A stretch of DNA of 64,000 nucleotides from an uncultured bacterium (GTDB lineage: Bacteria; Desulfobacterota; Binatia; HRBIN30; CADEER01), in contig CBFGUK010000003.1 in NCBI GenBank assembly GCA_965651925.1, forward strand, positions 6,801-70,800, in the 5' to 3' direction. Within the stretch, counting starts at the first letter, position 1. Every line of letters starts with the position of its first letter. The position numbers were made by a program, and so were the translations under genes. Positions 1-53,574 of this stretch are shown here, one piece after another. The notes beneath the pieces were generated by a model. The model did no database searches, was not told the DNA's origin, and saw nothing but the letters and a program-made list of their open reading frames with translations.

Positions 1-1830
1 AGCCGGCTCGCCGGGTAGAGTGCCGAGGCGCCGAGCGCGAGCGTCACCGCGAGCGTCAGGTACGGATGGCGCATGACCAGGCGGAAGAGCGGCTCGTAGA
101 GCGCGACCGAGGCGCGGTTGAGCGGATTGCGCTCCTCGGACGGGATGCGCCCGCGGATCAGGTAGACCATCAGCACCGGGACGACGGTGATGCCGAGCAG
201 GGCGCCGGCGGCGATGGCGAACGTCTTGGTGTAGGCGAGCGGCGTGAACAGCCGGCCGGACTGGTCACCGAGCGCGAAGATCGGCAGGAACGCGACGGTG
301 ATGACGAGCAGCGAGAAGAAGAGGCTCGGGCCGACCTCGGTCGCCGCGGCGAGGATGACCGGCACCTGGCTGCGCGGCGGCGCCCCGTCGGCGCGCCGCT
401 GGCGCTCGCGCTCGAGATGCTTGTGCGCGTTCTCGATCATCACCACGCCCGAGTCGACCATCACGCCGATCGCCAGCGCGAGCCCACCGAGGCTCATGAT
501 GTTCGCGTTGATCCCGAGCAGCTGCATGACGAGCAGCGAGGCGAGCAGCCCGATCGGCAGCACGAGCACGGCGACCAGCGCGCTGCGCACGTGGGCGAGG
601 AAGATGACACAGATGATCGCCACCACGATCAGCTCTTCGGCGACCGCGGTGCGCAGGGTCTCCACCGCCCGCCCGATCAGCGCCGACCGGTCGTAGGTGG
701 TCAGGATGAAGACGCCCGGCGGCAGCCCGTCCTCGAGCGCGGCGAGCGCCGCCTTCGCGTCGTGGATGACCTGGTAGGCGTTCTCGCCGAAACGCGAGAT
801 CACCACGCCGCCGACCGCCTCGCCGACGCCGTCGAGCTCGCCGATGCCGCGCCGCGGCGCGCCGCCGATCTGCAGCCGCGCGACGTCGCGCAGCAGCACC
901 GGGGTGCCTCCGGGCCCGGTGCCGACGACGACGGCGCCGAGATCGTCGAGCCCGCGCAGGTAGCCGCGGCTGCGCACCATGTACTCGTGCTCGGCCATCT
1001 CGACCACCGAGCCGCCGACGTCGGCATTCGATCGCCGGATCGCCTCGCCGACGTCGCGCAGCGCGAGGCCGAACGCCTGCAGCACCTGCGGGTCGACGAC
1101 GACCTGGTACTGTCTGACGAAGCCGCCGATCGCCGCGACCTCGGCCACACCGGAGACGGCAGTCAGCGGATAGCGCACGTACCAGTCCTGCAGGCTGCGC
1201 AGCGAGGCGAGGTCCTGGTTCGAGGACACCAGCGCGCTGCCGTCGAGCGGGCAGGTGCCCGCGGCGCGGAAGCCGCGTACGCGCGTCAGCTGCTCGCGCC
1301 GGTCGGCCGGCGCCGCCTCGCGGTCGGCGTACCAGCGGTCCGCGGCCGCATCGTGCCAGATGCCCTGCGGATGCGCGGCGCAGTACCAGCCGGGATACAG
1401 CACGTACTGCAGGACCCAGCCGACGCCGGTGGCGTCGGGGCCGAGCCGCGGCTGCACGCCGGCGGGCAGCCGGTCGCGTGCGAAGTTGAGGTATTCGAGC
1501 ACGCGGCTGCGCGCCCAGTAGATGTCGGTGCCGTCGGCGAACAGGACGTAGACGAAGGACAGCTCGAACATGCTGTAGCCGCGCACGACCGTCGCGCCGG
1601 GCACGGCGAGCATGGCGCTGGCGAGCGGGTAGGTGACCTGCTCCTCGACGACCTCCGGGTGCTGTCCCGGGTAGTCGGTGACGACGATCACCTGCACGTC
1701 GGAGAGATCGGGGATCGCGTCGAGGCGGATGTTGTACGTGCCCCACACCCCGAGCGCGAGCACGATCGCGGTGAGCAGGAGCACGAGCAGGCGGTTGTGC
1801 ACCGACCACTCGATGACGCGCGCGATCATG
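1..1830 (-). CDS. Heavy-metal efflux RND permease (HME family, CusA/CzcA-like). 5'-complete and 3'-partial: the C-terminus lies beyond the window start.
   Basis: Not in the ORF track because the frame stays open to position 1. My translation of the minus strand from the ATG at 1830-1828 gives MIARVIEWSVHNRLLVLL...PDLSDVQVIVVTDYPGQHPEVVEEQVTYPL...DGTDIYWARSRVLEYLN. This is the typical CusA/CzcA N-terminus, followed by TM helices and periplasmic loops, with 610 complete codons to position 1. It sits downstream of the adaptor and TolC-like genes on the same strand. Confidence 0.88.
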
Positions 1831-2015: not shown

Positions 2016-3371
2016 TCAGTGCACATGCGGCACCGCCTCCCGGGGCGCCGGTGGCGCCGCGTCCGGGTCGCCGGCCGGCGGCGCCGGCATCGGTTCGCCG
2101 GCCGTGCCGAGGAACCGCGCCACCGCCTCGCGGAAGTTGCTTTCTGCATCGAGCAGGAACTGCCCGCTGGTGACCACCGTGTCGCCCGCCGCGAGCCCGG
2201 CGCGGATCTCGACCAGGCCGTCGTCGCCGGTCGGGCCGACGGTGACGCGCCGCGGCGCGAAGTGTCCCTCGGCGCGGGCGATGAAGACGACCTGCTCGGT
2301 GCCGGTGTCGATCACCGCCTCGCGCGGTGCGAGCAGCACGCCGGCGATCGGCGCGGCGTCGATCACCACCGTCGCATACATGCCCTGCAGCAGCCGCTCG
2401 CCGGGATTCGCCACCTCGATGCGCGCCAGCGCCGTGCGCGTCGTCGGATCGAGATGCGGGTGGACGAACGTCACGCGTCCGGCGAGCGGCTCGCCGGGCA
2501 GTGAGGCGAGGTGCACGGTCGCCGGCCGGCCGACGCCGACCAGCGCCAGGTCCTGCTCGAAGATGCGCGCGTCGATCCACATCGTGCCGCGGTCCGACAG
2601 CCGCAGGACGCGTTCGCCGGCCTGCACGGCGTCGCCGGCGACGACCAGCTTCTCGGTGACGTGGCCGGTGATCGGGCTGGTGAACGTCACCGTTGCCGGC
2701 GGGCGATCGAGCCGCGCCAGCCGGTCGACCTGGGCGCGCGGCAGGCCGAGCAGCTCGAGCTTCTGTCGCCCGGTCTCGTACAGCAGCGCGGCGGCGCTGC
2801 CCGGGGCGGCCTCGCGCGGCAGCGCCGCGCGCGCGCCGATCAGCTCGCCGATCGCGACCTGCAGCTCGGGGCTGTAGAGCTCGAACAGCGGCTCCCCGGC
2901 GCGCACCGGCATGCCCTCGACGTCGGCGAACAGTCGCTCGATCCAGCCCGAGACGCGCAGCGCGATGTCGTGCTGGCTCGGCTCGGGCTCGCGCACGACC
3001 GCCACCGCGCGCACCGAGCGGCGCAGGGTGCCGCGGCGCACCGCCGCCGTGCGCACGCCCATGTTCTGCACGACGGCGGGATCGATGGTCACCGCCGGGC
3101 CGGCGTCATCTGCCTCGCGTGCCTCGCCGTTGCCGGACGGGCCGCCGTTGGTGACCAGCGGCGTCAGCTCCATGCCGCAGATCGGGCAGGTGCCCGGCCG
3201 ATCGCGGATCACCTGCGGGTGCATGCCGCAGGTGTAGAGCTGCTTCGGCTGCGCGTGCCCGGCATGCGGATCGCCGGGCTGCGCGTGCAGCATCGGCGCG
3301 CCGAGGAGCAGCGCGGCGGCGAACACCAGCATCCGCGCCGGTCCCCGGCGCGCGCGATCGTGCGCCGTCAT
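2016..3371 (-). CDS. Efflux RND periplasmic adaptor (membrane fusion protein, CusB/CzcB-like) with an N-terminal CxxxH...CPxCGM heavy-metal-binding domain.
   Basis: Internal start of the track ORF 2016..4232 at MTAHDRARRG (ATG at 3371-3369). The upstream part of the ORF is Arg-rich junk. Signal/TM segment MLVFAAALLLGAPMLHA, then YTCGMHPQVIRDRPGTCPICGMELTP, then the HlyD-like barrel-sandwich/beta-barrel body. The ATGA junction overlaps the stop of the upstream TolC-like gene. Confidence 0.85.
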   Translation of the reverse strand: MTAHDRARRGPARMLVFAAALLLGAPMLHAQPGDPHAGHAQPKQLYTCGMHPQVIRDRPGTCPICGMELTPLVTNGGPSGNGEAREADDAGPAVTIDPAVVQNMGVRTAAVRRGTLRRSVRAVAVVREPEPSQHDIALRVSGWIERLFADVEGMPVRAGEPLFELYSPELQVAIGELIGARAALPREAAPGSAAALLYETGRQKLELLGLPRAQVDRLARLDRPPATVTFTSPITGHVTEKLVVAGDAVQAGERVLRLSDRGTMWIDARIFEQDLALVGVGRPATVHLASLPGEPLAGRVTFVHPHLDPTTRTALARIEVANPGERLLQGMYATVVIDAAPIAGVLLAPREAVIDTGTEQVVFIARAEGHFAPRRVTVGPTGDDGLVEIRAGLAAGDTVVTSGQFLLDAESNFREAVARFLGTAGEPMPAPPAGDPDAAPPAPREAVPHVH

Positions 3372-25521: not shown

Positions 25522-25790
25522 ATTCGTGAGCTCCTTCGTGTTGGTGGACGGTGCAGGCGCCCGGCGCACCGCGCGTGCGCGCGGCGCATCTCGACCGAGG
25601 GTGAGCGGTGAGCGGGACCTTCGAGTCGCTATGCGACCCCCTTGGGGGAGTCAAGTCCGCACCGATCGCGGTGATGCGGTGCGCGGACGGACCGCATCAC
25701 CGCGCGACCTGGCTGCGGCGCGGGCGACGGATCCGCCCTGTCGGCCGCGGTGCGCCGGTGCCCGCTTGCGAGCGGGCATCGGCGCGAATC

Positions 25791-38065: not shown

Positions 38066-38109
38066 CCGCACGCCGCCCGCTCGCCACGGTGCACGCCGGG
38101 GAGGGGGCG

Positions 38110-38262
38110 ATGGAGCGACGTGACGAGCCGCGGTCGGGCGGCGAACCCGACGTGACGCCGTACTGCTACAACTGCGGCGAACGCGGCGAATGGCAGAAGT
38201 GCAAGCTCATCTGCCGCAACCCGCGCTGCGCGGTGCTGATCATCCTCGCGTGCGTCGATTGA
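38110..38262 (+). CDS. Small Cys-rich ORF (50 aa), speculative Zn-ribbon-like.
   Basis: MERRDEPRSGGEPDVTPYCYNCGERGEWQKCKLICRNPRCAVLIILACVD: CxxC...CxxxC...C spacing. 44 nt downstream of the GMC gene. Confidence 0.25.
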   Translation: MERRDEPRSGGEPDVTPYCYNCGERGEWQKCKLICRNPRCAVLIILACVD

Positions 38263-38322: not shown

Positions 38323-38733
38323 TCAGGCCGGGAGCGGCTCGAACTTCGGCAGCGTCACCACGTCGCTGATCTGCTCGAAGACGACGCGCGCCGGCATGCC
38401 GATGCGGATGGCGTGCGGGTCGACGCCGACGAGGTTCGAAACCATCCGCGGCCCCTCGGCGAGCTGCACGATGACCACCGCGTAGGGCACCTCGGTGGCG
38501 AAGCCGGGGTGGTAGACCTGGTGCATCACGGTGAAGCTGAACACCTCGCCGCGGCCGCTGACCGGGATCCACTCCGACGCGGTCGAGAGGCATGCGGTAC
38601 ACAGCGGCCGCGCCGGAAAGCGCAGCGCGCCGCAGCCGCCGCAGCGCTGCACGACGAGCTCGCCGCGTGCCGCGGCGGCGTAGAACGGCCGCATCTCCTC
38701 GGTGATCGCCGGGACGGGCTTCGCCGCCGCCAT
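38323..38733 (-). CDS. Zn-ribbon/OB-fold protein (DUF35 family), partner of SCP-x-type thiolases.
   Basis: Internal Met MAAAKPVPAITEE of the track ORF 38323..38820. CGGCGALRFPARPLCTAC rubredoxin-like Zn ribbon, then an OB-fold. Confidence 0.75.
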   Translation of the reverse strand: MAAAKPVPAITEEMRPFYAAAARGELVVQRCGGCGALRFPARPLCTACLSTASEWIPVSGRGEVFSFTVMHQVYHPGFATEVPYAVVIVQLAEGPRMVSNLVGVDPHAIRIGMPARVVFEQISDVVTLPKFEPLPA

Positions 38734-38740
38734 CGCCGGA

Positions 38741-39919
38741 TCAGTGCGCATTGCCGAGCACCAGCGTCGCGTGCGTGGAGAGGATGCCGCCGTTGCCGCT
38801 GACCAGCGCGACGCGCGCATCGCGGACCTGCCGTTCGCCGCCGTCGCCGCGCAGCTGGATGACCGCCTCGGAGATCGGCGTCATGCCCCACATATAGAAG
38901 GACGACAGCTGGCCGCCGCCGGTGTTGACCGGCAGTGCGCCGCCGGGCGCGAGGCGCGTGCCGTCGCCGACGAAAGCGCCCCCCTCGCCCTTGGCGCAGA
39001 AGCCGTAGTCCTCGAGCGAGACGAGCACGGTGAACGTGTAGCAGTCATAGAGCTCGACGACGTCGATGTCGTCGCGGGTCAGGTCCGCCATCGCGAACGC
39101 CTGCGCCGCCGCGAGCGGAGCGCCCGAGGTCAGCGTATCGAGTGGATCGCCGCCGGGGTGCCCCTGGCCCATGCCGAGCACGTACACCGGCGCCCGCCGG
39201 GCGTCGCGCGCCCGTTCGGCGCTGGTGACGATCACCGCGAGGCCGCCGTTCGACACCAGGCAGCAGTCGAGCAGGTGAAACGGCTCCACCACCCAGCGCG
39301 AGCGGTGATAGTCGTCGCGCGTCATCGGCGTCGCGAAGAACTGCGCCGCCGGGTTGCGGTTCGCCCACTGCCGCTGCGCGACGGCGATCGCGCCGAGGTG
39401 GTCGTTCGTCGTGCCGAAGCGGTGCATGTGGCGCCGCGCAATCATCGCGTACGCGGCGTTGACGCCGAAGTGTCCGTACGCCGCCTCGAGGCCGCGGCCG
39501 AAGCCGTAGGCGCCGGCCGATCCGCTGCGCGCGGCGTCGCCGCTGCCCGCCGGCCGCGGCGGCTTGAGCGGCGCGTCGGAGAAGACACAGGCGACCGCAC
39601 GGCATTGCCCGCTGGCGATCGCCTGCGCGGCGACCTGCACCATCGTCGCGGCGGTGGCACCGCCCGAGTTCATGCTGGCCGACAGGCGGAGGTCGCGCAG
39701 GCCCATCGCCTGCTGGAGCTGGAACGACGCCATGCCGAAATCGCCCCACGACAGGCCAGGGTTGACCAGCAGGCCGTCGAGATCGCCGCGCGTCAGTCCC
39801 GCGTCGTCGAGCGCGAGCCGGACTGCCTCGACCGCGAAGCCGACGGGCGTGCGCCCGTACACCTTGCCCTGCGGCGTGATGCCCAACCCCGCGATCGCCG
39901 CGCGCCCGCGCAGTGACAT
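38741..39919 (-). CDS. Thiolase-like protein of the SCP-x / nonspecific lipid-transfer-protein type.
   Basis: Internal Met MSLRGRAAIAGLGITPQGK of the track ORF 38741..40108. The upstream part runs into the repeat region. Thiolase fold with C-terminal NTGGGQLS and GNGG. Confidence 0.8.
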   Translation of the reverse strand: MSLRGRAAIAGLGITPQGKVYGRTPVGFAVEAVRLALDDAGLTRGDLDGLLVNPGLSWGDFGMASFQLQQAMGLRDLRLSASMNSGGATAATMVQVAAQAIASGQCRAVACVFSDAPLKPPRPAGSGDAARSGSAGAYGFGRGLEAAYGHFGVNAAYAMIARRHMHRFGTTNDHLGAIAVAQRQWANRNPAAQFFATPMTRDDYHRSRWVVEPFHLLDCCLVSNGGLAVIVTSAERARDARRAPVYVLGMGQGHPGGDPLDTLTSGAPLAAAQAFAMADLTRDDIDVVELYDCYTFTVLVSLEDYGFCAKGEGGAFVGDGTRLAPGGALPVNTGGGQLSSFYMWGMTPISEAVIQLRGDGGERQVRDARVALVSGNGGILSTHATLVLGNAH

Positions 39920-39969
39920 GAGGTCGCGATAGCCGCGCGGCCCGGGCGGGGCAAGACGGTGAGGGGATC

Positions 39970-40047
39970 GGTGACCGGTGACCGGTGACCGGTGAGGTGC
40001 CGATCTGGATCGAGTGCTGACGTACTGACGTGTTGACGTGCTGACGT
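39970..40047. repeat. Left arm of a compound inverted repeat: a (gACCGGT)x3 heptad array followed by a (nnTGACGT)x4 octad array.
   Basis: 39970-39997 reads gGTGACCGGTGACCGGTGACCGGTGAgg. 40016-40047 reads gcTGACGTacTGACGTgtTGACGTgcTGACGT. Confidence 0.7.
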
Positions 40048-40309
40048 TTGTTCGTTGCGACGGAGTGACCTCGACGATGCATCGGGCGCGCGCCGTCCGC
40101 GGCAGCACGTCGGCTCATCAGCACATCAACACGTCAGCGCGGCCGTCAATCACCTTCGGCAGGATTCCGTGTCTATCGCGTCAGCCGCGCTGCGCGCGGC
40201 AACTTGCTCGCGCTGGAGCTGTCGGACGCCCCTCACCCTGACCCTCTCCCCTGGCGGGGAGAGGGGACCCGGGTTCGTCGCGCGTAGGGGACGCGCCCGT
40301 AGCGCAGTT

Positions 40310-40386
40310 CACGTCAGCACGTCAGCACATCAGCACGTCAGCACCGGCCGCGCGCCAGCGCGGCCGACCGGTCACCGGTCACGGTC
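40310..40386. repeat. Right arm of the compound inverted repeat, the reverse complement of the left arm: (ACGTCAgc)x4 then (ACCGGTc)x2.
   Basis: 40310-40345 reads cACGTCAgcACGTCAgcACaTCAgcACGTCAgcacc. 40366-40386 reads gACCGGTcACCGGTcacggtc. Between the arms lie the hairpins CTCTCCCCtggcGGGGAGAG (40244-40263) and GCGCGTaggggACGCGC, plus a further degenerate ACGTCAGC run at about 40105-40135. Confidence 0.7.
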
Positions 40387-40390
40387 TTCG

Positions 40391-41101
40391 TCACGACATC
40401 AGCAGATGCTGAATGATGCCGTACGCGATGGTGACGGCGACGAGCGCGACGATGCGGGCCTGCGGGAGGTCGAGGGCGACGGCGAGCGCGCCGGTGAAGC
40501 AGCCGACGCCGGCGGCGAACGACAGCGGCGTGACGTATGGATTCCACGCGCTGCCGACCATGGCGAGCAGCATGGCGCCCCAGAAGAGCGCGAGGCCGGC
40601 GAGGGCGCCGGCACACCAGACGTGCGTGGCGGTCAGCGCGGCGGCGATCGGCAGGCTGACGAGCAGCACGGTCATCAGCGGGCGCAGGAGCGCCGGCGGA
40701 CGATCGCCGAGCCGGCCGAAGCGCGCGCTGATGTCGGCATCGGCGCCATATCCTCCGGCGCGCCCGTCGGCGCCATGGCTCAGCACGTCGGCCCAGTCGG
40801 GGCCGGTGGGCGCATACACGTACGGATGTCCCCACGGATCGTCGGGCACGTACGGCACGAATTCCGGCGCCAGCACGCGCAGGCCTTCCTGCGCGGTCGG
40901 CATGCGATGATGCTGCCCGCGGTAGCGGTCGAGCGCCGCGGCGAGGTCGCGCGCGCCGGTGACCGCCATGCTGTACGTCCCGGCATCCTGCAGGCTGTCG
41001 TAGAGCGTGGTGGCCGCGCGCGCGAACACGAGCACCAGCAGGGGCGTGACCAGCAGGCCGAGCAGGGCTCCGGCTGCGAAGGCAAGCGGGCGGCGGCGCA
41101 C
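40391..41101 (-). CDS. Membrane protein with a periplasmic type II secretion GspG-like (pseudopilin C-terminal) domain. It lacks a prepilin leader.
   Basis: 236 aa. N-terminal TM helix, then LDRYRGQHHRMPTAQEGLRVLAPEFVPYVPDDPWGHPYVYAPTGPDWADVLSHGADGRAGGYGADADI, matching the T2SS-G motif. Three more TM helices at the C-terminus. Confidence 0.6.
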   Translation of the reverse strand: MRRRPLAFAAGALLGLLVTPLLVLVFARAATTLYDSLQDAGTYSMAVTGARDLAAALDRYRGQHHRMPTAQEGLRVLAPEFVPYVPDDPWGHPYVYAPTGPDWADVLSHGADGRAGGYGADADISARFGRLGDRPPALLRPLMTVLLVSLPIAAALTATHVWCAGALAGLALFWGAMLLAMVGSAWNPYVTPLSFAAGVGCFTGALAVALDLPQARIVALVAVTIAYGIIQHLLMS

Positions 41102-41389: not shown

Positions 41390-41560
41390 GTGTGTCGGGG
41401 ATACCACACGCGTCGCGGACGGGGAACGGAGCGTCGCGCGTTGCCCACCCGACGCGCGATTGCTACTCGGAACGGGATGCGTGCGGAGGTGCGGAGGTGC
41501 GGAACGTCGGCCGGCGCCGCCGCGACGCCGGCCGCCGGTGCCAGTCCGACCGCCGGGCGT

Positions 41561-41944
41561 TCAGGGCGCGCGGTGCACGCCACCGCCGGGCGGCGCGGCC
41601 CGACCGACCGGTGGCGGCCCGGCGGCGCCGAGTGGCGCCGGGCCGGCGGCACCGAGCGGCGCGGGCCCGGCCGCACCGCGCGGCGGCGGACCCGCGGCGC
41701 CGAGCGGCGCCGGTCCGGCCGCGCCGCCTGGTACCTGTCCCGGTGGCGCGACGCGCGTCTGCAGGCAGGCCTGCACCGCGCCGAGCGGCGCACCGAGCGC
41801 GCTGGCGATCTGGTCGGGACGCGCGCCCTGGCGGAAGAGCTGGCGCGCCTGTGCGCAGCCGTCAGCCGCGGCGGGAGTCACGTCGATGATGGCGAGCGAC
41901 GCGCCGAGCAGCAGGCCGCCGAGCAGCAGCCGGGTTTCTCTCAT
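41561..41944 (-). CDS. Secreted low-complexity protein with (GAAGPAPL)n octapeptide repeats.
   Basis: Internal Met MRETRLLLGGLLLGASLAIIDVTPAAA (signal peptide) of the track ORF 41561..42082. Two Cys after the signal peptide, then five tandem GAAGP(A/P)PL units. Confidence 0.5.
   Translation of the reverse strand: MRETRLLLGGLLLGASLAIIDVTPAAADGCAQARQLFRQGARPDQIASALGAPLGAVQACLQTRVAPPGQVPGGAAGPAPLGAAGPPPRGAAGPAPLGAAGPAPLGAAGPPPVGRAAPPGGGVHRAP
41611..41730. repeat. 24-nt tandem repeat of about 5 units, encoding the GAAGPAPL units.
   Basis: ccgagYggcgcSggBccggcSgca units are visible on the plus strand. Coding, not a CRISPR array. Confidence 0.6.
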
Positions 41945-42941: not shown

Positions 42942-44080
42942 TCTTCCAGCGTGTCGAGCAGGCCATGCACGAGGCCGTGCGGCGCGGCGTCTTTCCCGGC
43001 GCCGTGCTGCTCGTGCGCGCGGCGGAGCGCGTCTTCTACCTGCGCGCCTTCGGCGACCGGCAGGTCGAGCCGACGCGCGCCGCGATGGCCGAGGACACGA
43101 TCTTCGACCTCTCGTCGCTGACCAAGCCGCTGGCGACGACGACCGCCGTGATGCTGCTCGTCCGCGACGGCAAGCTGCGTCTCGACGACCGCGTGACGCG
43201 CTTCCTGCACAACTTCGGCGTGCACGGGAAGATGCCCGTCACGCTGCGCCACCTGCTCGCGCACACCTCCGGACTCGCGGCGTGGCGACCGTTCTACAAG
43301 GACATCCTGCGCATCGAGAAGCGGGGCGAGAAGATCAACTTCCTCGGCAGCAGCGGGGCGAAGGAGTACGTCTACCAGCAGGTCGGTCGCGAGCGGCCGG
43401 AGGCGCCGGCGGGTACGCGCACGCTGTACAGCGATCTCGGCTTCATGATCCTCGGCGAGCTCGTCGAGCTGGCGAGCGGCACGACGCTCGACCGCTTCTG
43501 CCAGGACCGCATCGTGCGGCCGCTCGGGCTGCGCGAGACCTCGTTCATCGACCTCGGCCTGGTGCGCACGCGGCGCCTCGTGCCGGCGCGCGACCGCATC
43601 GCGGCCACCGAGCGTTGCCCGTGGCGCAAGCGCGTCCTGTGCGGCGAGGTGCACGACGACAACGCCTACGCGATGGGCGGCGTCGCCGGGCACGCCGGGC
43701 TGTTTGCCTCGGCGCGCGACGTCGACACGATCCTCTGCCGCCTGCGCGCCTGCTGGCAGGGGCGCGACGAGTTCCTGCCGGCGGCGCTGGTGCGCGAGTT
43801 CTGGACCCGCGACCCGGCGGTGGCGGGCTCGACCTGGGCGCTCGGCTGGGACACGCCGTCGCCGACGGCGTCCTCGGCCGGCACGCGCTTCTCGCCCGAG
43901 ACCGTCGGTCATCTCGGCTTCACCGGCACGTCGATCTGGATGGATCTGGCGCGTGACCGGCACGTCATCCTGCTGTCCAACCGCGTTCATCCGACGCGTG
44001 ACAACGAACGCATCAAGGAGTTCCGGCCCGTGCTGCATGATCTCGTGAACGAGGCGCTGGACGAGGAGGGGAAGGGATGA
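42938..44080 (+). CDS. Serine hydrolase of the beta-lactamase / class C (AmpH-like) family.
   Basis: GTG start overlapping the ldcA stop (GTGA) within the track ORF 42503..44080. SLTKPL (SxxK), YSDLG (YxN-equivalent) and HLGFTG (KTG-equivalent) motifs. Confidence 0.75.
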   Translation: MIFQRVEQAMHEAVRRGVFPGAVLLVRAAERVFYLRAFGDRQVEPTRAAMAEDTIFDLSSLTKPLATTTAVMLLVRDGKLRLDDRVTRFLHNFGVHGKMPVTLRHLLAHTSGLAAWRPFYKDILRIEKRGEKINFLGSSGAKEYVYQQVGRERPEAPAGTRTLYSDLGFMILGELVELASGTTLDRFCQDRIVRPLGLRETSFIDLGLVRTRRLVPARDRIAATERCPWRKRVLCGEVHDDNAYAMGGVAGHAGLFASARDVDTILCRLRACWQGRDEFLPAALVREFWTRDPAVAGSTWALGWDTPSPTASSAGTRFSPETVGHLGFTGTSIWMDLARDRHVILLSNRVHPTRDNERIKEFRPVLHDLVNEALDEEGKG

Positions 44081-45525
44081 CCGAGCGCGACCGGCCGCGC
44101 GTCGATCTCGCGCAGGTGCGCCACGTCCATCTCGTCGCCATCGGCGGTGTCGCGATGGCGGCGCTCGCCGGCATGCTGCAGCGCCGCGGACTGCAGGTCA
44201 CCGGCTCGGACGAGGGCGTCTATCCGCCGATGAGCACCGTGCTGGCGCGGCTCGGCATCCGCGTGCGCGACGGCTACCGACCGGCGAATCTCGAGCCCCG
44301 CCCCGATCTCGTCGTCATCGGCAACAAGGTCTCGCGCGACAATGCCGAGGTGCAGGCGGTGCTCGCCGCCGGCCTGCCGTACCTGTCGCTGCCGGAGACG
44401 CTCGGCGCCCTCTTTCTCGCCGGCCGGCAGTCACTCGTGGTCGCCGGCACGCACGGCAAGACGACCTCGACCGCGATGCTCGGCTGGGTGCTCGAGTGCG
44501 CGGGATACGATCCCAGCCTGCTGGTCGGCGGCGAGAGCCTCGACTTCGGCGGCAACTTCAAGCTCGGCGATGGTCCGCACTTCGTCATCGAGGGCGACGA
44601 GTACGACAGCGCGTTCTTCGACAAGGGGCCGAAGTTCCTCCACTACCGACCCGCGGCCGCGATTCTCACCGCGGTCGAGTTCGATCATGCCGACATCTAT
44701 CGCGACCTCGATCATGTGAAGGAGGCGTTCCAGCGCTTCGTCGCGCTGCTGCCCGCCGGTGCGCCGCTGGTGGTCGCCCAGGCCTTTCCGCACGCGCTCG
44801 AGGTGGCGCGCAGCGGCGCGGCACGCGTCGTCACCTTCGGCCGCGCGGCCGAGGCGGAGTGGGAATGCCGCGACCTCGCCGACCGCGACGGCGCGCTGCA
44901 CTTCCGCGTCGCACATCGCGGCCGCGACGAAGGCGCGCTGACGCTGCGCGTACCGGGCGCGATCAATGCGCTCAACGCGCTCGGCGTTTACGCGCTGGCG
45001 CGCGAGCTCGATGTGCCGCACGACGCGATCGCCGGCGGTCTGGCGTCGTTCCGCGGCGTTGCGCGGCGCCAGGAGCTGGTCGGCACGTGGCGCGGCGTGA
45101 CGGTGATCGACGACTTCGCCCATCATCCGACGGCAGTCGCCGGGACGCTTGCCGCGCTGCGCGCCCGCTATCCCCGGCAGCGCCTGTGGGGGGTGTTCGA
45201 GCCGCGGTCGAACACCAGCCGGCGGCGCATTTTCCAGCGCGAGTACGTCGACGCGCTCGCCGCCGCCGACGCGGTGATCGTCGGGGGGGTGTTCCGCAAG
45301 GAGACCGATGCCGTCGCCGCCGATCTGCTGTTCTCCCCCGAACAGCTCGCCGCCGATCTCACGGCGCGCGGCGTTGCGGCGCGCGCCATCGCCGCCACCA
45401 ACGATATCGCGGCGACCCTCGCCGGCGAGGCCGTTCCCGGCGACGTGATCGTGCTGATGTCGAACGGCGCCTTCGGCGGGCTGCGCGAGCAGCTGGTCGG
45501 CGAACTGCAGAAGCGTGACCGGTGA
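44077..45525 (+). CDS. mpl: UDP-N-acetylmuramate:L-alanyl-gamma-D-glutamyl-meso-diaminopimelate ligase (murein peptide ligase Mpl).
   Basis: 482 aa. Mur ligase P-loop VAGTHGKTTSTAML. ATGA overlap with the upstream gene. Mpl-like rather than MurC by length and synteny with ldcA. Confidence 0.8.
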   Translation: MTERDRPRVDLAQVRHVHLVAIGGVAMAALAGMLQRRGLQVTGSDEGVYPPMSTVLARLGIRVRDGYRPANLEPRPDLVVIGNKVSRDNAEVQAVLAAGLPYLSLPETLGALFLAGRQSLVVAGTHGKTTSTAMLGWVLECAGYDPSLLVGGESLDFGGNFKLGDGPHFVIEGDEYDSAFFDKGPKFLHYRPAAAILTAVEFDHADIYRDLDHVKEAFQRFVALLPAGAPLVVAQAFPHALEVARSGAARVVTFGRAAEAEWECRDLADRDGALHFRVAHRGRDEGALTLRVPGAINALNALGVYALARELDVPHDAIAGGLASFRGVARRQELVGTWRGVTVIDDFAHHPTAVAGTLAALRARYPRQRLWGVFEPRSNTSRRRIFQREYVDALAAADAVIVGGVFRKETDAVAADLLFSPEQLAADLTARGVAARAIAATNDIAATLAGEAVPGDVIVLMSNGAFGGLREQLVGELQKRDR

Positions 45526-45544
45526 CCAGTGACTGGTGACCGGT
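45515..45544. repeat. Second copy of the heptad ACCGGT-type array, (gACCGGT, gACCaGT, gACtGGT, gACCGGT), overlapping the mpl stop codon.
   Basis: The sequence reads GTGACCGGTGACCAGTGACTGGTGACCGGT. The mpl stop TGA (45523-45525) lies inside the first GGTGACC. The same motif family occurs at 39970-39997 and 40366-40386. Confidence 0.55.
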
Positions 45545-45757
45545 AGGAGGAGGATCCCCCGGGAAGCGGACGCGGCGAGTGTCCGTATGCTGCTCGATCC
45601 GGGCCGTCCGCTGAGTCTCCGGACGCTTCTTTTCTCGACTTCGCGTCCTCGGCGTCTTCGCGGCTGATGGTCGGGTTCATGGAAAACCGCACACCGGTCA
45701 CCGTCGCACAGGGGCCAGTGGCACGGCCGGCACGCATACGCTAGGAACCGGACTGTC

Positions 45758-46510
45758 ATGTCCGTCGCCATCGACCGGTCGGTGCTCGATGCGGTGCTCT
45801 CGCGGGCCTTCGATGCGAAGTCGCCCGAGGAGATTCTGCGTTGGGGGCTGGAGACGTTCGCGCCGCGGATCGCGCTCTCGGCGAGTTTCGGATCGCCCGA
45901 GGGCATGGTGCTCCTCGACATGATGCACGCCATCGATCCGGCGAAGACACGCGTCTTCACCATCGATACCGGGCGGCTGCACCAGGAGACCTACGACCTG
46001 ATGGATCGCGTGCGCACCCGCTACGATCTCGAGGTCGAGGTGTATTTCCCCAATCCCGACGCGGTACAGGCGATGGTCCGCAAGCACGGCCTGAACCTCT
46101 TCTACGACGCGGTCGAGCTGCGCCGGAAGTGCTGCGGCATCCGCAAGGTCGAGCCGCTCGGGCGCGCACTCGCCGACCTCGACGCGTGGATCGCGGGGCT
46201 CCGGCCGGGACAGGGTGTGACGCGCAACGAGGTGCGTGCGGTCGAGATCGACGAGGTGCACGGCGGACGCATCAAGCTCAATCCGCTGGTCGGATGGACG
46301 CGCGAACAGGTGATGGACTACGTCGAGCGCCATCACGTCCCGGTGAACCGGCTGCATGCCGACGGCTACCCGAGCGTCGGCTGCGTCCCGTGTACGCGCT
46401 CCATCCAGCCGGGCGAGGATGAACGCGCCGGCCGCTGGTGGTGGGAGAACGAAGACCAGCGCGAGTGCGGCATCCACGTCGGCTACGAGGAGAAGGGCTC
46501 GGGCATCTGA
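45758..46510 (+). CDS. cysH: Thioredoxin-dependent adenylylsulfate / phosphoadenylylsulfate reductase (CysH) of the Fe-S cluster type, likely APS reductase.
   Basis: 250 aa. PP-loop SFGSPEGMVLLDM. Cys pair CCGIRKVEPL plus CVPCTRS ([4Fe-4S] ligands). C-terminal ECGIHVG redox motif. Confidence 0.85.
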   Translation: MSVAIDRSVLDAVLSRAFDAKSPEEILRWGLETFAPRIALSASFGSPEGMVLLDMMHAIDPAKTRVFTIDTGRLHQETYDLMDRVRTRYDLEVEVYFPNPDAVQAMVRKHGLNLFYDAVELRRKCCGIRKVEPLGRALADLDAWIAGLRPGQGVTRNEVRAVEIDEVHGGRIKLNPLVGWTREQVMDYVERHHVPVNRLHADGYPSVGCVPCTRSIQPGEDERAGRWWWENEDQRECGIHVGYEEKGSGI

Positions 46511-46770: not shown

Positions 46771-49700
46771 ATGACGCTGGCGGCGAAGAACGCGAGGGCC
46801 TGCGGGTGTGCCCGGATTCGTTCGGGCCTCGTCCGGCTGACCGTCGTTGCGCTTGCGGCCCAGATCGGCGGGCTCGGCCCCGCCGCGGCGGCGCCCCCGG
46901 CGCTGACGACCAGCTCGAGCGCGGTGGCGTCCGCGACCTGTGGCGGCGCACAGGTCACCGTGGGTGTTCACGGCGTCGGTGATCCGGTCACGCAGCGCCG
47001 CCCGCTCGACGTCATGATCGTCTTCGACCGCTCCGGTTCGATGGACGATGCGTGGTGGTTGCCGCCGCAGCCGCTCACCGATGCGAAGACCGGAGCCAGG
47101 GTGCTGGTCGACTCGCTCAGCGCTACGGAGGATCGCGCCGGCCTCACGTCCTTCTCCGACACCGGGACGCTCAACCGCGGCCTGACGTCCAATTTCACCT
47201 CGGTGAAGAGCGCCATCGACGGGCTCTGGGCGCTCGGCGCGACGAACATGGCGCGCGGCATCCAGACCGGCCAGACGGAGCTCGCGGCCAACGGCCGCAG
47301 TACGCCGGCGGTGCGCGTCATGGTCGTGCTCGGTGACGGCGTGCCCACCCGCCGTCTGAACGGGAGCTCGTGCTCGAACACGCCCAGTGCACCGAACGGC
47401 TGCACGCAGGACGCGGTCGCGCAGGCGGCGGCGGCCAAGGCTGCCGGCACGGTGATCTTCACGATCGGCCTGAACCTGACGAACCTGCCGTTTGCGACCG
47501 AGGCGGTGGCGCGCAGCACGCTGCAGGACATCGCCTCCACGCCGGACGCCTACTTCGAGTCGCCGACCTCTGCCGAGCTGGCCGGCATCTTCGCGCAGAT
47601 CGGCGAGATCGTCACGACCCTCGCCGGCTCGGACGTCGTGCTCACGCACGTGCTGCCGGGCGGGGTGTCGTACGTCGGCGGCTCAGCCGTCCCGGCCCCG
47701 AGTGTGGTGAGCGGCCAGACGCTGGTGTGGAATCTCGGCCTGCTGAACATCGGCAGCAGCACGGGGGTGACGTTCACCGTCCACATTGCGGACGCGACTC
47801 CGGGTCAGCCGGTGGTCGCGCCGGGCAGCGGCGTCGACTACCTCGACTACCAGGGAGAGGCCGCGACGGTTGCCGTGCCGCCGGCCGCGGTGAGCGTCGT
47901 TCCCTGCGCGACGGCGACGCCCTCATTGACCGGGACGGCGACGCGCACGCACACGCCGGGACCGACGAACACCCCGACGCACACCGGCACGCCGACGCGC
48001 ACGAGTACGCCCGCGGCGACGGCGACCGCGACCCACACCCCGGCGCCGTTCTGCGGCGATGGGGTGATCGATCCCGGCGAGAGCTGTGATGACGGCAACG
48101 GCTTCGACGGCGATGGATGCGAGTCGGACTGCACCCCATCGGCCGCGTGCGCGTTCGGCCACGACGGCGTCGAGCGGTTCGTCGGCGCATGCGGCGCACC
48201 GAGCCATGCGAGCATCCAGGCGGCGGTGGACGCCGCAGCCGACGGCGACACGATCACCGTCTGCCCGGGCGCGTACACCGAACAGGTGCAGGTCACGCGC
48301 GAGGTGCACCTCCGCGCCGCGGAACCCGGGACGGTGCTGGTGGAGACGAACGGGACGGCGTTCGACCTGCAGCGCAGTGGCATCACGATCGAGGGGCTGG
48401 TGATCACCGCGACCGGCGGCACGGCGGTGACCACCGCGGCGCTGTGTCCGCTCGGCCAGATGACGTGCGCGGCGCCGGATCACGGATCGAAGCTGCGCAT
48501 CGCGAACAACACGATCTCCGGCAGCGTGCTCGGCATCGGCTGGTCGCTGCGCGTCGATTGCGCAGAGATCGCCGGCAATACGCTCACCGACAACACCACG
48601 CACATCGACATCCGGCAGCAGGATGGCCCGTCGGCGGTGCTGGTCGGCATCACCGGCAACCAGGTGTCCCTCGGGGGGACGTCTGGCGCGGCGGTGACGC
48701 TCGCCGGCATCGGCGCGACCATTGCCGCAAACACCATTGCCAGCTCGAGCACGGCCGGGCTCGTGCTGGCGGCGATGAGCGACGGGAGCCAGGTGATCGA
48801 GAACGCCCTTGCCGGCAACGCCGGTGACGGCATCACGTTGCGCTCGGGCGCAAGCGCGGTGCGGGTGCGCGACAACAACATCACCGACAACGGCGTCGGC
48901 CTCGGCAACGAATCCGGCGGGCTGGTCGACGCGCGCGAGAACTGGTGGGATTCGCAGACCGGGCCGAGCGGCGTGACGTGGCCGAATCCCGACCCCGGAC
49001 CGCCGCTGACCGGCAGCGGTGACCTGCTCGTCAACCGCTCGGGCAGCACGACGTTCATCGAGTTCCTGTGCAAACCCTTCCCGCAGGGCTTCCCCAGCGT
49101 GCTCGGGCAATGCGGCACGGAAGTGGCGGAGCTGCGCCAGCTCCTGCCGGGTCGCGCGCCGGATCTCGATCCGTTCGGTCGCTACATCGTGTTCGAATCG
49201 ACGGCCGACATGGATGTCGACGGGCGCACCGCGTACAGCAACGGCGACGCCAGCCAGGAGATCTTCCTGCTGAACCGGCGGCCGCGGAAGCCGCTGATCG
49301 GCGTCTGCCTCGGCGGGCTCGTGCCGTGCGACTTCCGCAATCTCGGCACCTGCACGCCGTGCCGGGGCAGGAAGGAGTGCCCGGGAGATCCGAGCGCCGA
49401 TCCGATCGTCCTGAATGGCGAGTGCGTCGTCGTCACGCAGCTCACCAACGGGCACGGGGAGACGCAGAGTCGCGGGCCGCGGCTGACCGGGCTCGCCAAG
49501 CACGTGGTGTTCGACTCGGACAACCAGCAGGACGGGAACCCCGACGGGTCACGCGAGATCCTGCGCTGGAGCCGGCCGTCGTTCGAGAAGTCCGAGCCGC
49601 CGCTGGCGTCGTACTCGCACGGCACCGCCGACGAGCACTACCAGAACCCGGCGCCGGCGCTGAACGGCAAGTACATCGCGGTCGAATCGAACGCGAACCC

Positions 49701-51081: not shown

Positions 51082-53574
51082 ATGGTGAGCGGACACGGGT
51101 GTGTGCTGCTCGCCGCATTGCTGTTCGCCCTTGCTCCCGTCCGGATGGCGCGCGCCGCGGTGCCGTCGCTGCCGGGCGATGCGGACTGCGACGGCGTGGT
51201 GACCGCCGCCGATTTGTCGCAGATCTGGGCCGAGCTCGCCGACGGTGACGGCTGGCTCGCCGCCGAGGCGGACGGCGGTTCGGTGGTCAGCTGCATCGGC
51301 GCAGACGCCAACCGCGATGGTGCGATCACCGCCGCCGATCTCGCCGGCGTCAGCCTGCGCCTCGGCGGCGGCGTCGCCGCCGCCGGGCCGTTCATCACCT
51401 ACATGGGCATTGCGTCCGCGGATGGCACCACGACGGCGCCGGCGGGCGACGTGCCCGTCCCGGTCTGGCAATCGGTCAGCGGGATCGGATTCCGTGTCGT
51501 CATCGAGGTCGCACCGGGCGACGGCGGTGTGCCGGTCGGACAGACGGTCGTCTCGCCGCGGGTCGACGAAGCGCCTGACCTCCAGGTGCAGGTCTCGCGC
51601 CCGCTCGGCGACGGCAGCCGCAACGTCTGCGGCGAGGGCGGTGTGCCCGGCATCGCGCCGCCGCACTTCGAGCCGCTCGACGCGATCAGCCCCGTGCTCA
51701 ACGATCTCGGCTGCCGCTTCGAGGTCGCATCGAATCCGTTCTCCGCGTGCACCACCGATGCCTTCGGCGCTCACCGCTTCGTCGATCCGCGCACCCGCGT
51801 CCAGTTCTGCCTGTTCGTGTCGACCGTCGAGGCGTTCCCGGACGGCCTGACGCTGGTCACCGCACGCGCGCGCGACACAGCGGGGGTGCCGAGCGCCCCC
51901 GCGCAGCTCCTCGTCCGCGTCGGCACCGAGCCGCTCGTCACCGTGACACCGCGGCCGACGGCCACTGCGACCGCGTCTCCCGACGCCACCGAATCGCCGA
52001 CCGCGACGATGACCGCGCCACCCACGGCACCGCCGCCGACCGCGACCGCCACGAGCGATGCGACCGCCACCCGCAGCGGCTCGCCGACGCCGACGCGCAC
52101 GCCGAGTGTCACGGCGGTGCCGACGCGCACCGGAACGCGCACGCGCACGCCGAGTCCGACGACGAGTCCCACCCGGACGCGCACGTACACACCCGGACCG
52201 AGCCCGACGGCCACCATCACGGGCATCGCGACGTCGACGTCGACGCGGACGGCGACCCGCACCGCGACCCGATCGCCAACGCGCACGCCGACGCGCACCG
52301 GATCGGCGACGCGCACCCTGACCCGTACGCCAGGGCCGAGCAGCACCGCGACCGGTACCGGGACGCCGACGCACACGATCACCCGGACGCGCACCCCGAG
52401 CGCGACCCGCACGCGCACGATCACCGGCACGCGACCGCCGACGGCGACGCCGACACGGACGCGCACGGCCACGAGTACGCGGACGGTGACGCCGACGAGC
52501 CGCTTCAGCCTGACGCCGACCCCGACCCGCACCGCAACGGGAACGGCGACGCGCACCGGGACGCGCACCGCGACGCCGACCGGTACGCTGGTCCGTACCC
52601 CGACACAGACGCCGTCGCGTACCGCCACGCGCACCATCACCCCGACGCGCACGCGCACCGGCACGCCGACCCGCACGATCACCGGCACACGGCCGGCGAC
52701 TGCCACCGTGACCCGGACCCGCACGCTGACGCGCACGCCGACGGCCAGTGTCACGCGGACGGTCACGGTGACCCGCCCGCCGGTGGCCACCGGCACCAGC
52801 ACCCGGACGAGGACGGTCACGCGCACGCGGACGCCCACCCCGACGCCGAGCGTAACGCGCACCGGCACCCAGACCCGCACCGCGACGCGAACCGGAACGG
52901 CCACGCTGTCGCCGACCATCACCCGTACGCCCTCGGTGACGCGCACGGCGACCCAGACCCGCACGCCGACGCCGACAGGGCGTCCCGGCGCGGACATCAG
53001 CTATGCCGGGCTGGCGCGGGCCAGCGACACCGTGATCGCGCCATCCGGCACGACGGCGCAGGGCTGGCCGATCTACGAGCGGCCGTTCGGATTCTCGTTC
53101 TCGCTCGTGATCGAAGCGAAGCCAGGTCCGAGCCGGCGTCCCGTCGGACTGAACGCATTCCGCAGCAGCCTGACGGATCCCGCGTTGCGTCCCGACCTCG
53201 AGATCATCGTCTCGCGGCCGCTCGGCAACGGCAGCCTCGACGTCTGCGACGACATGCTGCCGCTTCTCGGCGGAGTGCCCGCCTCGTCCGGATTCGAGCT
53301 CACCCAGCAGATTTCGAACGCCATCAACGATCTCGCCTGCCGGTTCGTCACCGGAGGCGGAGAGCCCGGCGGCCGTCGCAGCGCCGATGCGTGCACGGTC
53401 TTCGGTGACGGCGAGTACCGGTTCATCGATTCGACGAGCACGGTGCAGTTCTGCGCACTGATTGCCGAGCCCTTCGGGTTCCCACTCGGCGATACGGTCG
53501 TCACCGTCCGTGTCCGCGACTCGACGGGCATGCCGGGGCCGCCGGCGAGCTTCGTCGTGCGCGTGCTGCCCTGA
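51082..53574 (+). CDS. Secreted protein: signal peptide, dockerin-like Ca-binding pair, unnamed 4-Cys domain, ~330-aa (T/R/P/S/A)-rich linker, then a second copy of the same 4-Cys domain.
   Basis: Internal Met [25 protein letters not shown] of the track ORF 50866..53574. Dockerin loops [12 protein letters not shown] and [12 protein letters not shown]. Domain copy 1 (~175-345) and copy 2 (~655-830) align: ...VIE(V/A)xPG...(Q/I)VSRPLG(D/N)GSxxVC...(L/I)NDL(G/A)CRF...AC...FG..(H/Y)RF(V/I)D...VQFC...(V/T)V(T/T)xRxRD(T/S)xG(V/M)P...VRV. The linker is TRTxTPTxT-type low complexity. 830 aa. Confidence 0.7.
51940..52980. repeat. About 1 kb cryptic nucleotide repeat (acgcgcacgccgac-type) encoding the Thr/Arg/Pro-rich linker.
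   Basis: ACSCGBACSCCGACS-like units, imperfect and codon-periodic. Coding low-complexity, not a CRISPR array. Confidence 0.6.

Follow-up and report, generated by a model that had tools for sequence, protein, structure and literature searches.

In a 64,000-nt stretch of DNA from an uncultured bacterium of a Binatia-like lineage (GenBank assembly GCA_965651925.1, contig CBFGUK010000003.1, positions 6,801 to 70,800; hereafter the window), a 470-bp spacer separates two minus-strand genes, one for a T2SSG-domain protein and the other for a thiolase-like protein. This spacer is a compound extragenic palindrome with simple-sequence-repeat arms, the heptamer GTGACCG outside and the octamer GCTGACGT inside. 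Its arrays are nested and inverted within 39964-40386, with the heptamers outermost, the octamers inside them, and a third, degenerate octamer array and hairpins in between. A first-pass annotation of the window had described heptad and octad arrays forming a long inverted repeat with internal hairpins, flanked by minus-strand thiolase, DUF35 and T2SSG-domain genes. Every element that it described is present, and a domain scan agrees on the genes; it had not recorded the small spacer hairpin that lies between the heptamer and octamer arrays of each arm. Tandem arrays were called with Tandem Repeats Finder (TRF), which reported four in the spacer with 84-100% match. The features of the locus are as follows.

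38323-38820, minus strand: gene for a DUF35/ChsH2 OB-fold protein.
38741-39919, minus strand: gene for a thiolase-like protein.
39920-39957, minus strand: ancestral 5' region of the thiolase gene with a conserved CTTGCC block, outside the insertion (alignment with relatives).
39964-39995, plus strand: outer 5' arm, (GTGACCG) x ~4, first unit degenerate (TRF and sequence).
39996-40013, no strand: left-arm spacer at the heptamer/octamer junction, with a small local inverted repeat CGATC..GATCG (sequence; locally paired in the RNA and DNA folds).
40014-40047, plus strand: inner 5' arm, octamer (GTGCTGAC) x 4.2, period 8 (TRF, inverted-repeat search).
40100-40139, minus strand: third octamer array, degenerate, oriented like the right arm (inverted-repeat search).
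40242-40265, no strand: perfect 10-bp hairpin CCCTCTCCCC-TGGC-GGGGAGAGGG inside the loop (sequence; 0 expected by chance).
40280-40296, no strand: perfect 6-bp hairpin GCGCGT-AGGGG-ACGCGC inside the loop (sequence; paired in the RNA fold).
40310-40344, minus strand: inner right arm, period 8, 4.4 copies of CACGTCAG, the reverse complement of GTGCTGAC (TRF, fold).
40345-40366, no strand: right-arm spacer hairpin CGGCCGCGC-GCCA-GCGCGGCCG with a perfect 9-bp stem (sequence; paired in the RNA and DNA folds).
40367-40386, minus strand: outer right arm, ACCGGTC, which is GTGACCG on the minus strand, period 7, 2-3 copies, with 3.0 reported by TRF (TRF, inverted-repeat search).
40391-41101, minus strand: gene for a T2SSG-domain protein.

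The octamer arms (40014-40047 and 40310-40344) form a 34-nt inverted repeat that is 91% complementary, with its halves 263 nt apart. The inverted repeat of the heptamer arms measures 16 nt, with 100% complementarity and halves 373-380 nt apart. TRF placed the left heptamer array at 39969-39995 (period 7, 3.9 copies, 100% match) with the unit CGGTGAC, which is GTGACCG in another register; the right heptamer arm starts 4-8 nt past the TGA stop (40391-40393) of the T2SSG-domain gene. Neither unit is present at chance frequency: the pattern GTGACCGGTGACCG (a heptamer dimer with at most two mismatches) has 16 matches in the window against 1.38 expected, and the octamer dimer has 11 against 4.15. 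Could so repetitive a spacer be an artefact of assembly? Contig L112, from an independent ENA assembly (ERZ23329302) of another sample of the same species, reproduces the left 339 bp at 100% identity, which rules out an error of assembly as the source of the structure. The L112 contig ends inside the CTCTCCCC/GGGGAGAG hairpin (40242-40265).

Folding of the 480-nt region as RNA yields -269 kcal/mol, compared with -219 +/- 6.5 kcal/mol in shuffled sequences (z = -7.75). In the minimum-free-energy RNA structure the outer heptamer arms pair with each other, the inner octamer arms pair with each other, and the spacer hairpins form locally. The region is also strongly favoured to fold as DNA (z = -6.8).

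Three kinds of candidate were considered for the spacer and rejected. A clustered regularly interspaced short palindromic repeat (CRISPR) array needs direct repeats of 23-50 nt with unique spacers of similar length; here the units are contiguous, 7-8 nt long and in inverted pairs. Iterons or a replication origin were rejected on the housekeeping chromosomal context and the lack of rep genes, and small open reading frames (ORFs) inside the element were rejected as well. A search of the window for tRNA and tmRNA genes found none.

Why these particular units? Both contain TGA, and neither 7 nor 8 is a multiple of three, so that a stop codon falls in every frame. The left heptamer array and the left octamer array each supply TGA in all three plus-strand frames; the right arm does the same for the three minus-strand frames, which the third array (40100-40139) also stops. 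Whichever strand is read, the stop-bearing arm is the 5' arm, and the base of the stem, approached from either side, has a stop in each of the three frames. The heptamer has a second property. Read in a shifted register, the complement of GTGACCG is GTCACCG; only one base in each unit separates the two (GT[G/C]AC), which makes a direct GTGACCG array already 6/7 self-complementary. A single array could thus become a hairpin through a point change (G to C in half of the units) plus homogenisation, and arm length would change through replication slippage, by growth as well as shrinkage.

The first-pass annotation had proposed a wider search for the ACCGGT heptad, and in a scan of one genome per species (GTGACCG)3 was found at no fewer than 110 loci, at least six of them in the metagenome-assembled genome (MAG) GCA_033764095.1, to which contig L001 belongs. 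Among the matches listed, Gemmatimonadales, Burkholderiales, Steroidobacteraceae, Chloroflexia and one betaproteobacterium have several loci each. The hairpin form, an intergenic array followed 16-110 nt later by its inverted array, occurs in a related MAG and in several other lineages, where the GTGACCG elements fold with z-scores of -7.8 to -12.7. About 50 kb of that MAG holds six further repeat-armed hairpins that lay outside the search selection, four built of AGCGATG/TGAGCGA, one of the octamer CGGTGAGC and one of the octamer CACAAAGG. The loci fetched for GTGACCG contain 56 heptamer arrays of other sequence, compared with 14-15 arrays each for periods 6, 8 and 9. Repeat-armed intergenic hairpins are a little-studied class that is abundant in this Binatia-like lineage, with the heptamer form spread across many phyla.

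The composite heptamer-plus-octamer pattern had 0 matches in the genome-collection scan, and the source MAG is apparently not among the species representatives. A metagenome scan for the octamer recovered the composite pattern on contig L191 (GC 0.71), which is unrelated and has its octamers nested inside heptamers as in the window. There the stop of a histidine-kinase gene falls inside (GTGACCA GTGACCG CTGACCG), followed by 9 nt, (GCTGACGT) x 3 and a 15-nt loop; on the right side of the loop stand (GTCAGCAC) x 3, 18 nt and (ACCGGTC) x 4. The L191 element folds with z = -4.8. The four arms of the two composite elements align as (GTGACCG)2-4, a variable spacer of 9-23 nt and (GTGCTGAC)3-4. Hairpins with octamer arms only were found at L183, L128 and L222.

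The comparison with L191 bears on the third octamer array of the window element, which is 76-78% complementary to the left octamer arm and may serve as an alternative pairing partner. In a switch-like leader or attenuator, the sense arrays at 40310-40344 and 40100-40139 would compete for the antisense array at 40014-40047 and thereby control read-through into the thiolase operon, using the two mutually exclusive pairings (91% versus 76-78%) that three arrays permit. We consider such a switch extremely improbable: the minimum-free-energy fold uses the outer octamer pairing only, the third array is degenerate, the homologous composite element on L191 has a single pair, relatives express the thiolase operon without a leader of this kind, and no Rfam family matches in the window.

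Two further observations concern the arrays in other lineages. In Chloroflexia and Gemmatimonadota, GTGACCG arrays run straight into other heptamers (GTGATAA, CTGACAA, GTAACCG, CTGAAAC, GTGAACC), giving mosaic arms (L053 4805-4890, L063 2326-2429, L010 5351-5409, L095 4822-4887 and L007 4684-4831); most of these heptamers carry TGA or TAA, many with a common GTGA core. Among viral contigs, (GTGACCG)3 occurs in 1, compared with 7, 3 and 1 for three composition-matched heptamers, and is not enriched in that set. The sole IMG/VR 'viral' contig with a (GCTGACCG-free) (GTGACCG)3, L236, has divergent arrays at 1376-1395 (minus strand) and 2659-2678 (plus strand), 1.3 kb apart; it comes from JGI sample 3300042876, a number close to that of the sample of contig L113 (3300042874), and is perhaps a provirus, perhaps a cellular fragment of the same lineage that was misassigned.

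Is the element present at this junction in other genomes? Relatives were located through the thiolase protein, the nearest being 81-84% identical and belonging to uncultured bacteria labelled Deltaproteobacteria or Candidatus Binatia. Gene order around the T2SSG-thiolase junction is kept in them, and the spacer, measured from the T2SSG stop to the thiolase ATG, compares as follows.

L113: 46 bp, empty.
P0016 contig: 44 bp, empty.
P0015 contig: 55 bp, empty.
L235: 69 bp, empty.
L234: 197 bp, hairpin with arms of 9-nt period, CACAGATGN x 3 ... CATCTGTGN x 3; fold z = -5.4.
L001 (GCA_033764095.1): ~1.1 kb, with an additional PT-rich ORF and, immediately before the thiolase gene, a heptamer hairpin of (NGAGCGA)n/(TCGCTCN)n; fold z = -5.6.
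Window: 470 bp, composite heptamer and octamer hairpin.

About 40 nt beside the thiolase start, from the CTTGCC block onward, are conserved across the relatives and are homologous to the whole of the 44-69 bp spacers. In the alignment the CTTGCC block of the window sits immediately outside the left heptamer array, and we therefore place the insertion at about 39958-40386, with the heptamer arrays as its ends. Judged from this alignment, the element is inserted relative to the related contigs, or was amplified in place. One junction thus carries three different repeat-armed hairpins in three lineages and is empty in four other contigs.

The relatives offer several side observations. Repeat-armed hairpins with other units lie at L234 2327-2457, L001 2305-2367 and 4229-4326, L021 3180-3296 and L092 5011-5069; their units are the 9-mer CACAGATGN, the heptamer TGAGCGA and the octamers CGGTGAGC and CACAAAGG, and two of them stand at the T2SSG-thiolase junction. 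One lies 7 nt past the stop of a GMC-oxidoreductase gene, where the equivalent position in the window (38066-38110) has no hairpin. The T2SSG-thiolase spacer of L001 also holds, at ~1547-2320, a plus-strand ORF, whose product has a signal peptide followed by a long linker rich in Pro and Thr, and a C-terminus that is dockerin-like (GDCNRNGTVTVDELI...). At this place the stored annotation has two minus-strand ORFs instead, probably miscalls.

Filled and empty sites invite the idea of mobility. The first-pass annotation had suggested a miniature inverted-repeat transposable element (MITE), which in the present case would be an element with composite terminal inverted repeats of ~75 nt recognised by a transposase encoded elsewhere in the genome. 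Part of this reading stands: the spacer is filled relative to four contigs, the ends of the insertion coincide with inverted heptamer arrays, the composite arm recurs on L191, arm copies are many per genome, polarity is consistent within each family, and stops in all frames at both ends would lessen the harm of insertion near gene ends. The interior does not behave as that of a MITE. In BLAST searches of the window and a set of fetched loci, the 470 bp matched only heptamer arms and the same-species contig L112, and the interior (positions 77-447 of the 470 bp) had no second copy there; the loops of 20 related elements bear no relation to one another in length or sequence, even within one genome. 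Moreover, the copy numbers of the arms are unequal at the two ends, a scan of 30 window ORFs (which include the housekeeping genes uvrA, mfd, pdxA, ATP sulfurylase, cysH and mpl) detected no transposase domain, and no direct duplication is discernible in the flanks read, where relatives ~84% identical at the protein level leave an empty site that cannot be aligned base for base. We regard a MITE as unlikely.

Is the element instead a target for a DNA-binding protein? The window itself contains a second GTGACCG locus, GTGACCG GTGACCA GTGACTG GTGACCG at 45515-45544 on the plus strand, which provides the TGA stop of an mpl-like Mur ligase gene (44077-45525). Its inverted remnant, 145 nt downstream at ~45688-45701, amounts to only 1.5 units, and cysH (45758-46510) lies further downstream. 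The region 45505-45760 folds no better than shuffled sequences (z = -0.12), and the locus is therefore treated as a solo array. The first-pass annotation had also offered an array of binding sites for a regulator of the thiolase/DUF35 operon. Such an operon-specific operator is excluded because the same arrays adjoin unrelated genes, mpl among them (stop at 45515) and many genes in relatives, and because the orthologous spacers and promoter regions of relatives have no arrays or have arrays of different sequence. A more general element acting as DNA would bind, by its arrays or as a cruciform, a nucleoid, gyrase or IHF-like protein (or else a regulator of this operon). Bacterial interspersed mosaic elements (BIMEs) bind gyrase, IHF and Pol I, the phased 7-8 bp repeats of a TGAC core resemble iterated half-sites, and the DNA fold is stable as described. 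Nevertheless, the differing units found at one junction argue against sequence-specific recognition, the analysis turned up no candidate for a binding protein, and we judge an action at the DNA level very unlikely.

Placement and polarity were assessed with gene calls that are crude and based on GC at third codon positions (GC3). With such calls, at loci with GC >= 0.60, ~93% of GTGAC arrays fall between genes, and 15 contribute the TGA stop of the gene upstream. In the elements that were read base by base, the 5' arm starts 0-8 nt past the upstream stop, and 14-50 nt separate the end of the 3' arm from the following start codon. Polarity was tested with the core GTGAC versus GTCAC, since with one mismatch allowed an antisense unit counts as sense in a shifted register. 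The inverted partner lies downstream in 20 arrays, a count in which pairs with at least three units in both arms figure twice, and upstream in 1. Solo arrays between co-directional genes are sense to the genes in 21 cases and antisense in 9. The genes flanking the elements are co-directional in 32 cases, convergent in 17 and divergent in 8, against a background of 65%, 19% and 16%; by these crude calls convergent flanks are mildly enriched.

The 56 heptamer arrays of other sequence, which were not selected for their units, allow the unit itself to be assessed against 2000 composition-matched shuffles. TGA occurs in 32 of them against 13.8 expected and GTGA in 18 against 4.2 expected, counts that 0/2000 shuffles reached in either case. 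Any stop codon occurs in 40 against 30.0 expected, a count reached by 1/2000 shuffles.

What might such elements do? We put at roughly even the chance that they are gene-boundary elements acting at the RNA level, in the manner of repetitive extragenic palindromes (REPs) and BIMEs. The element would be transcribed together with the flanking minus-strand genes. On a minus-strand transcript, TGA codons would appear in every frame no more than ~70 nt past the T2SSG stop, and ribosomes in any frame would be halted at the stem. Next in the transcript would come the stem itself, with about 75 paired bases and broken up by side hairpins; it could block 3' exonucleases, serve as a processing site for RNase III or terminate transcription partially, and the upstream gene would thereby be uncoupled from the thiolase operon. 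A structured RNA or terminator had been the third suggestion of the first-pass annotation, and of the three it is the best structural fit, with fold z-scores of -4.8 to -12.7 across the window element and related elements. The terminator part of it fares less well: no canonical terminator or Rfam match was found, and in related elements a start codon follows the 3' arm by 14-50 nt, which makes full termination unlikely and is better matched by an intercistronic role in stabilisation or processing. Liang, Rudd and Deutscher reportedly observed in 2015 that an upstream gene is translated less when a REP lies no more than ~15 nt from its stop codon; the 0-8 nt spacing between stop and arm in the present elements falls within the range of that effect.

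Several results weigh against a role at transcript level. A scan of 39800-40500 on both strands for canonical intrinsic terminators returned 0 sites, and a promoter consensus scan of the region returned none. Rfam 15 gave 0 matches at the gathering threshold over the whole window, with hits at chance level only (E >= 0.086) in 39800-40500. By the crude gene calls divergent flanks, at 8/57, are not depleted relative to the 16% background, which is unexpected for pure 3'-end elements. Stops in three frames are missing from the 9-mer hairpin of L234 and from the CACAAAGG hairpin, and the TTGACGTT octamer family has the opposite polarity; across all families of 7 or 8 nt the stop-bearing arm comes first in 16 pairs and last in 7, and 4 pairs have no stops. 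The test of adjacency to stop codons is biased, as any array that contains stops necessarily terminates every ORF. Polarity within a family would also follow from descent from one mobile element, and a neutral or selfish origin explains most of the observations equally well.

Under that neutral or selfish account, the main rival and in our view a tentative possibility, slippage and template switching amplify short, near-palindromic units in permissive intergenic DNA, and the resulting hairpins are harmless and without function; units that contain stops would be those that cannot be absorbed into coding sequence or mistaken for it. Heptamers dominate, as the commonest units, the long simple-sequence repeats of many genomes, and slippage was proposed as their cause (Mrazek 2007, as summarised in PMC4679880). 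The present repeats have the marks of such long simple-sequence repeats, in that copy number lies beyond chance, the arrays are non-coding and a second GTGACCG locus occurs at 45515. A mutational by-product is also consistent with loops that are unrelated between elements, with presence and absence that differ among close relatives at the T2SSG-thiolase junction, with three unit sequences in three lineages at that one junction, with a second locus in the window that is a solo array of no significant structure, and with elements that stand between divergent genes as well. Four observations fit this account poorly. The 20:1 polarity of the arms is not required by hairpin formation and is not expected from slippage and hairpin formation alone; the arms are placed tightly, 0-8 nt past stop codons; the composite arm of heptamers, spacer hairpin and octamers recurs on the unrelated contig L191; and TGA and GTGA are enriched beyond composition.

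A gene-boundary role and amplification by mutation may also be combined. It is conceivable, though we think it doubtful, that these elements are a widespread, convergently evolving punctuation of gene boundaries in high-GC bacteria, a frame-independent TGA stop joined to a long RNA stem and renewed in place by palindrome-amplifying mutation. If so, amplification in place would explain why three units occupy the T2SSG-thiolase junction in three lineages, and the STRR (short tandemly repeated repetitive), GGGAATC and TAACTGA heptamer repeats would share a rationale that depends neither on G-quadruplexes nor on a specific binding protein.

The window contains other repeats. (GGTGAGC) x 2.3, a TGA-containing heptamer at 25600-25615 without an inverted partner, lies ~30 nt upstream of the ATP-sulfurylase start. 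The stretches 51771-52997 and 47929-48039 are highly repetitive with periods of 6, 12, 24, 42 and 54 nt (e.g. ACGCCGACGCGC); read on the minus strand, their high-GC3 ORF gives an implausible VRVGVRV... protein and can mislead gene callers, and the true product is probably a Pro/Thr-rich repeat protein encoded on the plus strand. A perfect octamer array without stop codons, (GTGCGGAG) x 2.9 at 41481-41503, adjoins a 24/48-nt tandem repeat of 5 copies at 41604-41726. Both lie in the 41.4-42.0 kb region between a 98-aa ORF and an LD-carboxypeptidase gene; this region and a minus-strand gene for a small secreted repeat protein, with its start near 41943, probably overlap. In practical terms, repeat-armed hairpins break assemblies, as where L112 ends inside one, and create spurious ORF calls in high-GC MAGs.

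How do these elements compare with repeats already described? Mazel and colleagues are said to have described the cyanobacterial STRR heptamers in 1990. STRR2, TTGGTCA (reverse complement TGACCAA), has the same TGACC core as the present heptamer. TAACTGA repeats occur in Beggiatoaceae, Cyanobacteria and Bacteroidetes, where 169 sets are direct and 1 is indirect, positioned just upstream of start codons with no structure predicted; their forward-orientation stop codons restrict overlap with coding sequence (MacGregor 2015, PMC4679880). The present arrays resemble STRR and TAACTGA repeats in being tandem heptamers of 2-6 or more units, intergenic, present at many loci per genome, patchy in phylogeny and provided with forward stops. 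Whereas those repeats are essentially direct, the present elements usually come as inverted pairs, with long stems directly behind the stops.

The closest described relatives are the heptamers of Xanthomonas and Nostoc. The GGGAATC repeats of Xanthomonas number ~185 loci per genome with a modal 4 units, and 70-75 pairs per genome are convergent and capable of forming stem-loops (Rehm et al. 2015, PMC4692102). Their sites are in the gaps between co-directional ORFs, at most 50 bp from a stop codon (sense) or a start codon (antisense), and some overlap the stop; most of the repeats are transcribed, they are not associated with insertion sequences or other mobile elements, and an explanation by G-quadruplexes was proposed (PMC4692102). 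The intergenic heptamer of Nostoc is GGGGAYT (PMC4692102). The likeness lies in the 7-nt unit, the ~4 units per array and the convergent pairs near gene ends. In contrast to Xanthomonas, the units here, GTGACCG or GCTGACGT, are not G-rich and contain no G-runs, and the quadruplex idea is therefore inapplicable; the present units carry TGA in three frames, families of 7 and 8 nt are nested in one hairpin together with spacer hairpins, and the host is an uncultured Binatia-like lineage. A text search of the searchable literature for the GTGACCG dimer in this context returned no match.

REPs are proposed to protect mRNA 3' ends and, when within ~15 nt of a stop codon, to affect translation. Like REPs, BIMEs and REPINs (REP doublets forming hairpins) of Enterobacteria and Pseudomonas, the present elements are extragenic palindromes, often intercistronic and after stops, with inverted doublets, mosaic motifs and presence/absence polymorphism. 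The REP stem, however, is a single conserved, imperfect palindrome of 20-40 nt, whereas here it is built of tandem 7-8-nt units. REPINs have conserved loops and ties to REP-associated tyrosine transposases (RAYTs), unlike the present elements, whose loops are unrelated and for which no RAYT was found among the 30 scanned window ORFs. With MITEs such as Correia/NEMIS, ERIC and RUP they share a size of 100-500 bp, terminal inverted repeats, intergenic position, filled and empty sites and long RNA hairpins; they differ in having no shared interior and no target-site duplication in the flanks read, and in terminal repeats that are tandem arrays of variable copy number. Hairpin-only ('I-shaped') intrinsic terminators of high-GC bacteria consist of a long GC-rich stem after the stop with little or no U-tract. 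The present elements likewise have a GC-rich stem after a stop, and short U-runs follow the elements of L191 (CCUUUUCUU) and L021 (GCUUUUC), but at 20-75 bp the stems are much longer and consist of tandem units, and in relatives a start codon comes 14-50 nt on, too close for a promoter to fit.

Knowledge of intergenic heptamer repeats goes back to 1990, and the best-studied case has been explained by the formation of G-quadruplexes. Here, the locus and its relatives present the known heptamer architecture without the capacity to form quadruplexes, and attention moves from the sequence of the unit to the design of a hairpin plus a stop. What is new, compared with the systems above, is the nesting of heptamer and octamer arrays in one arm, the TGA-bearing units that are not G-rich, the lineage, and the turnover of units at one orthologous junction.

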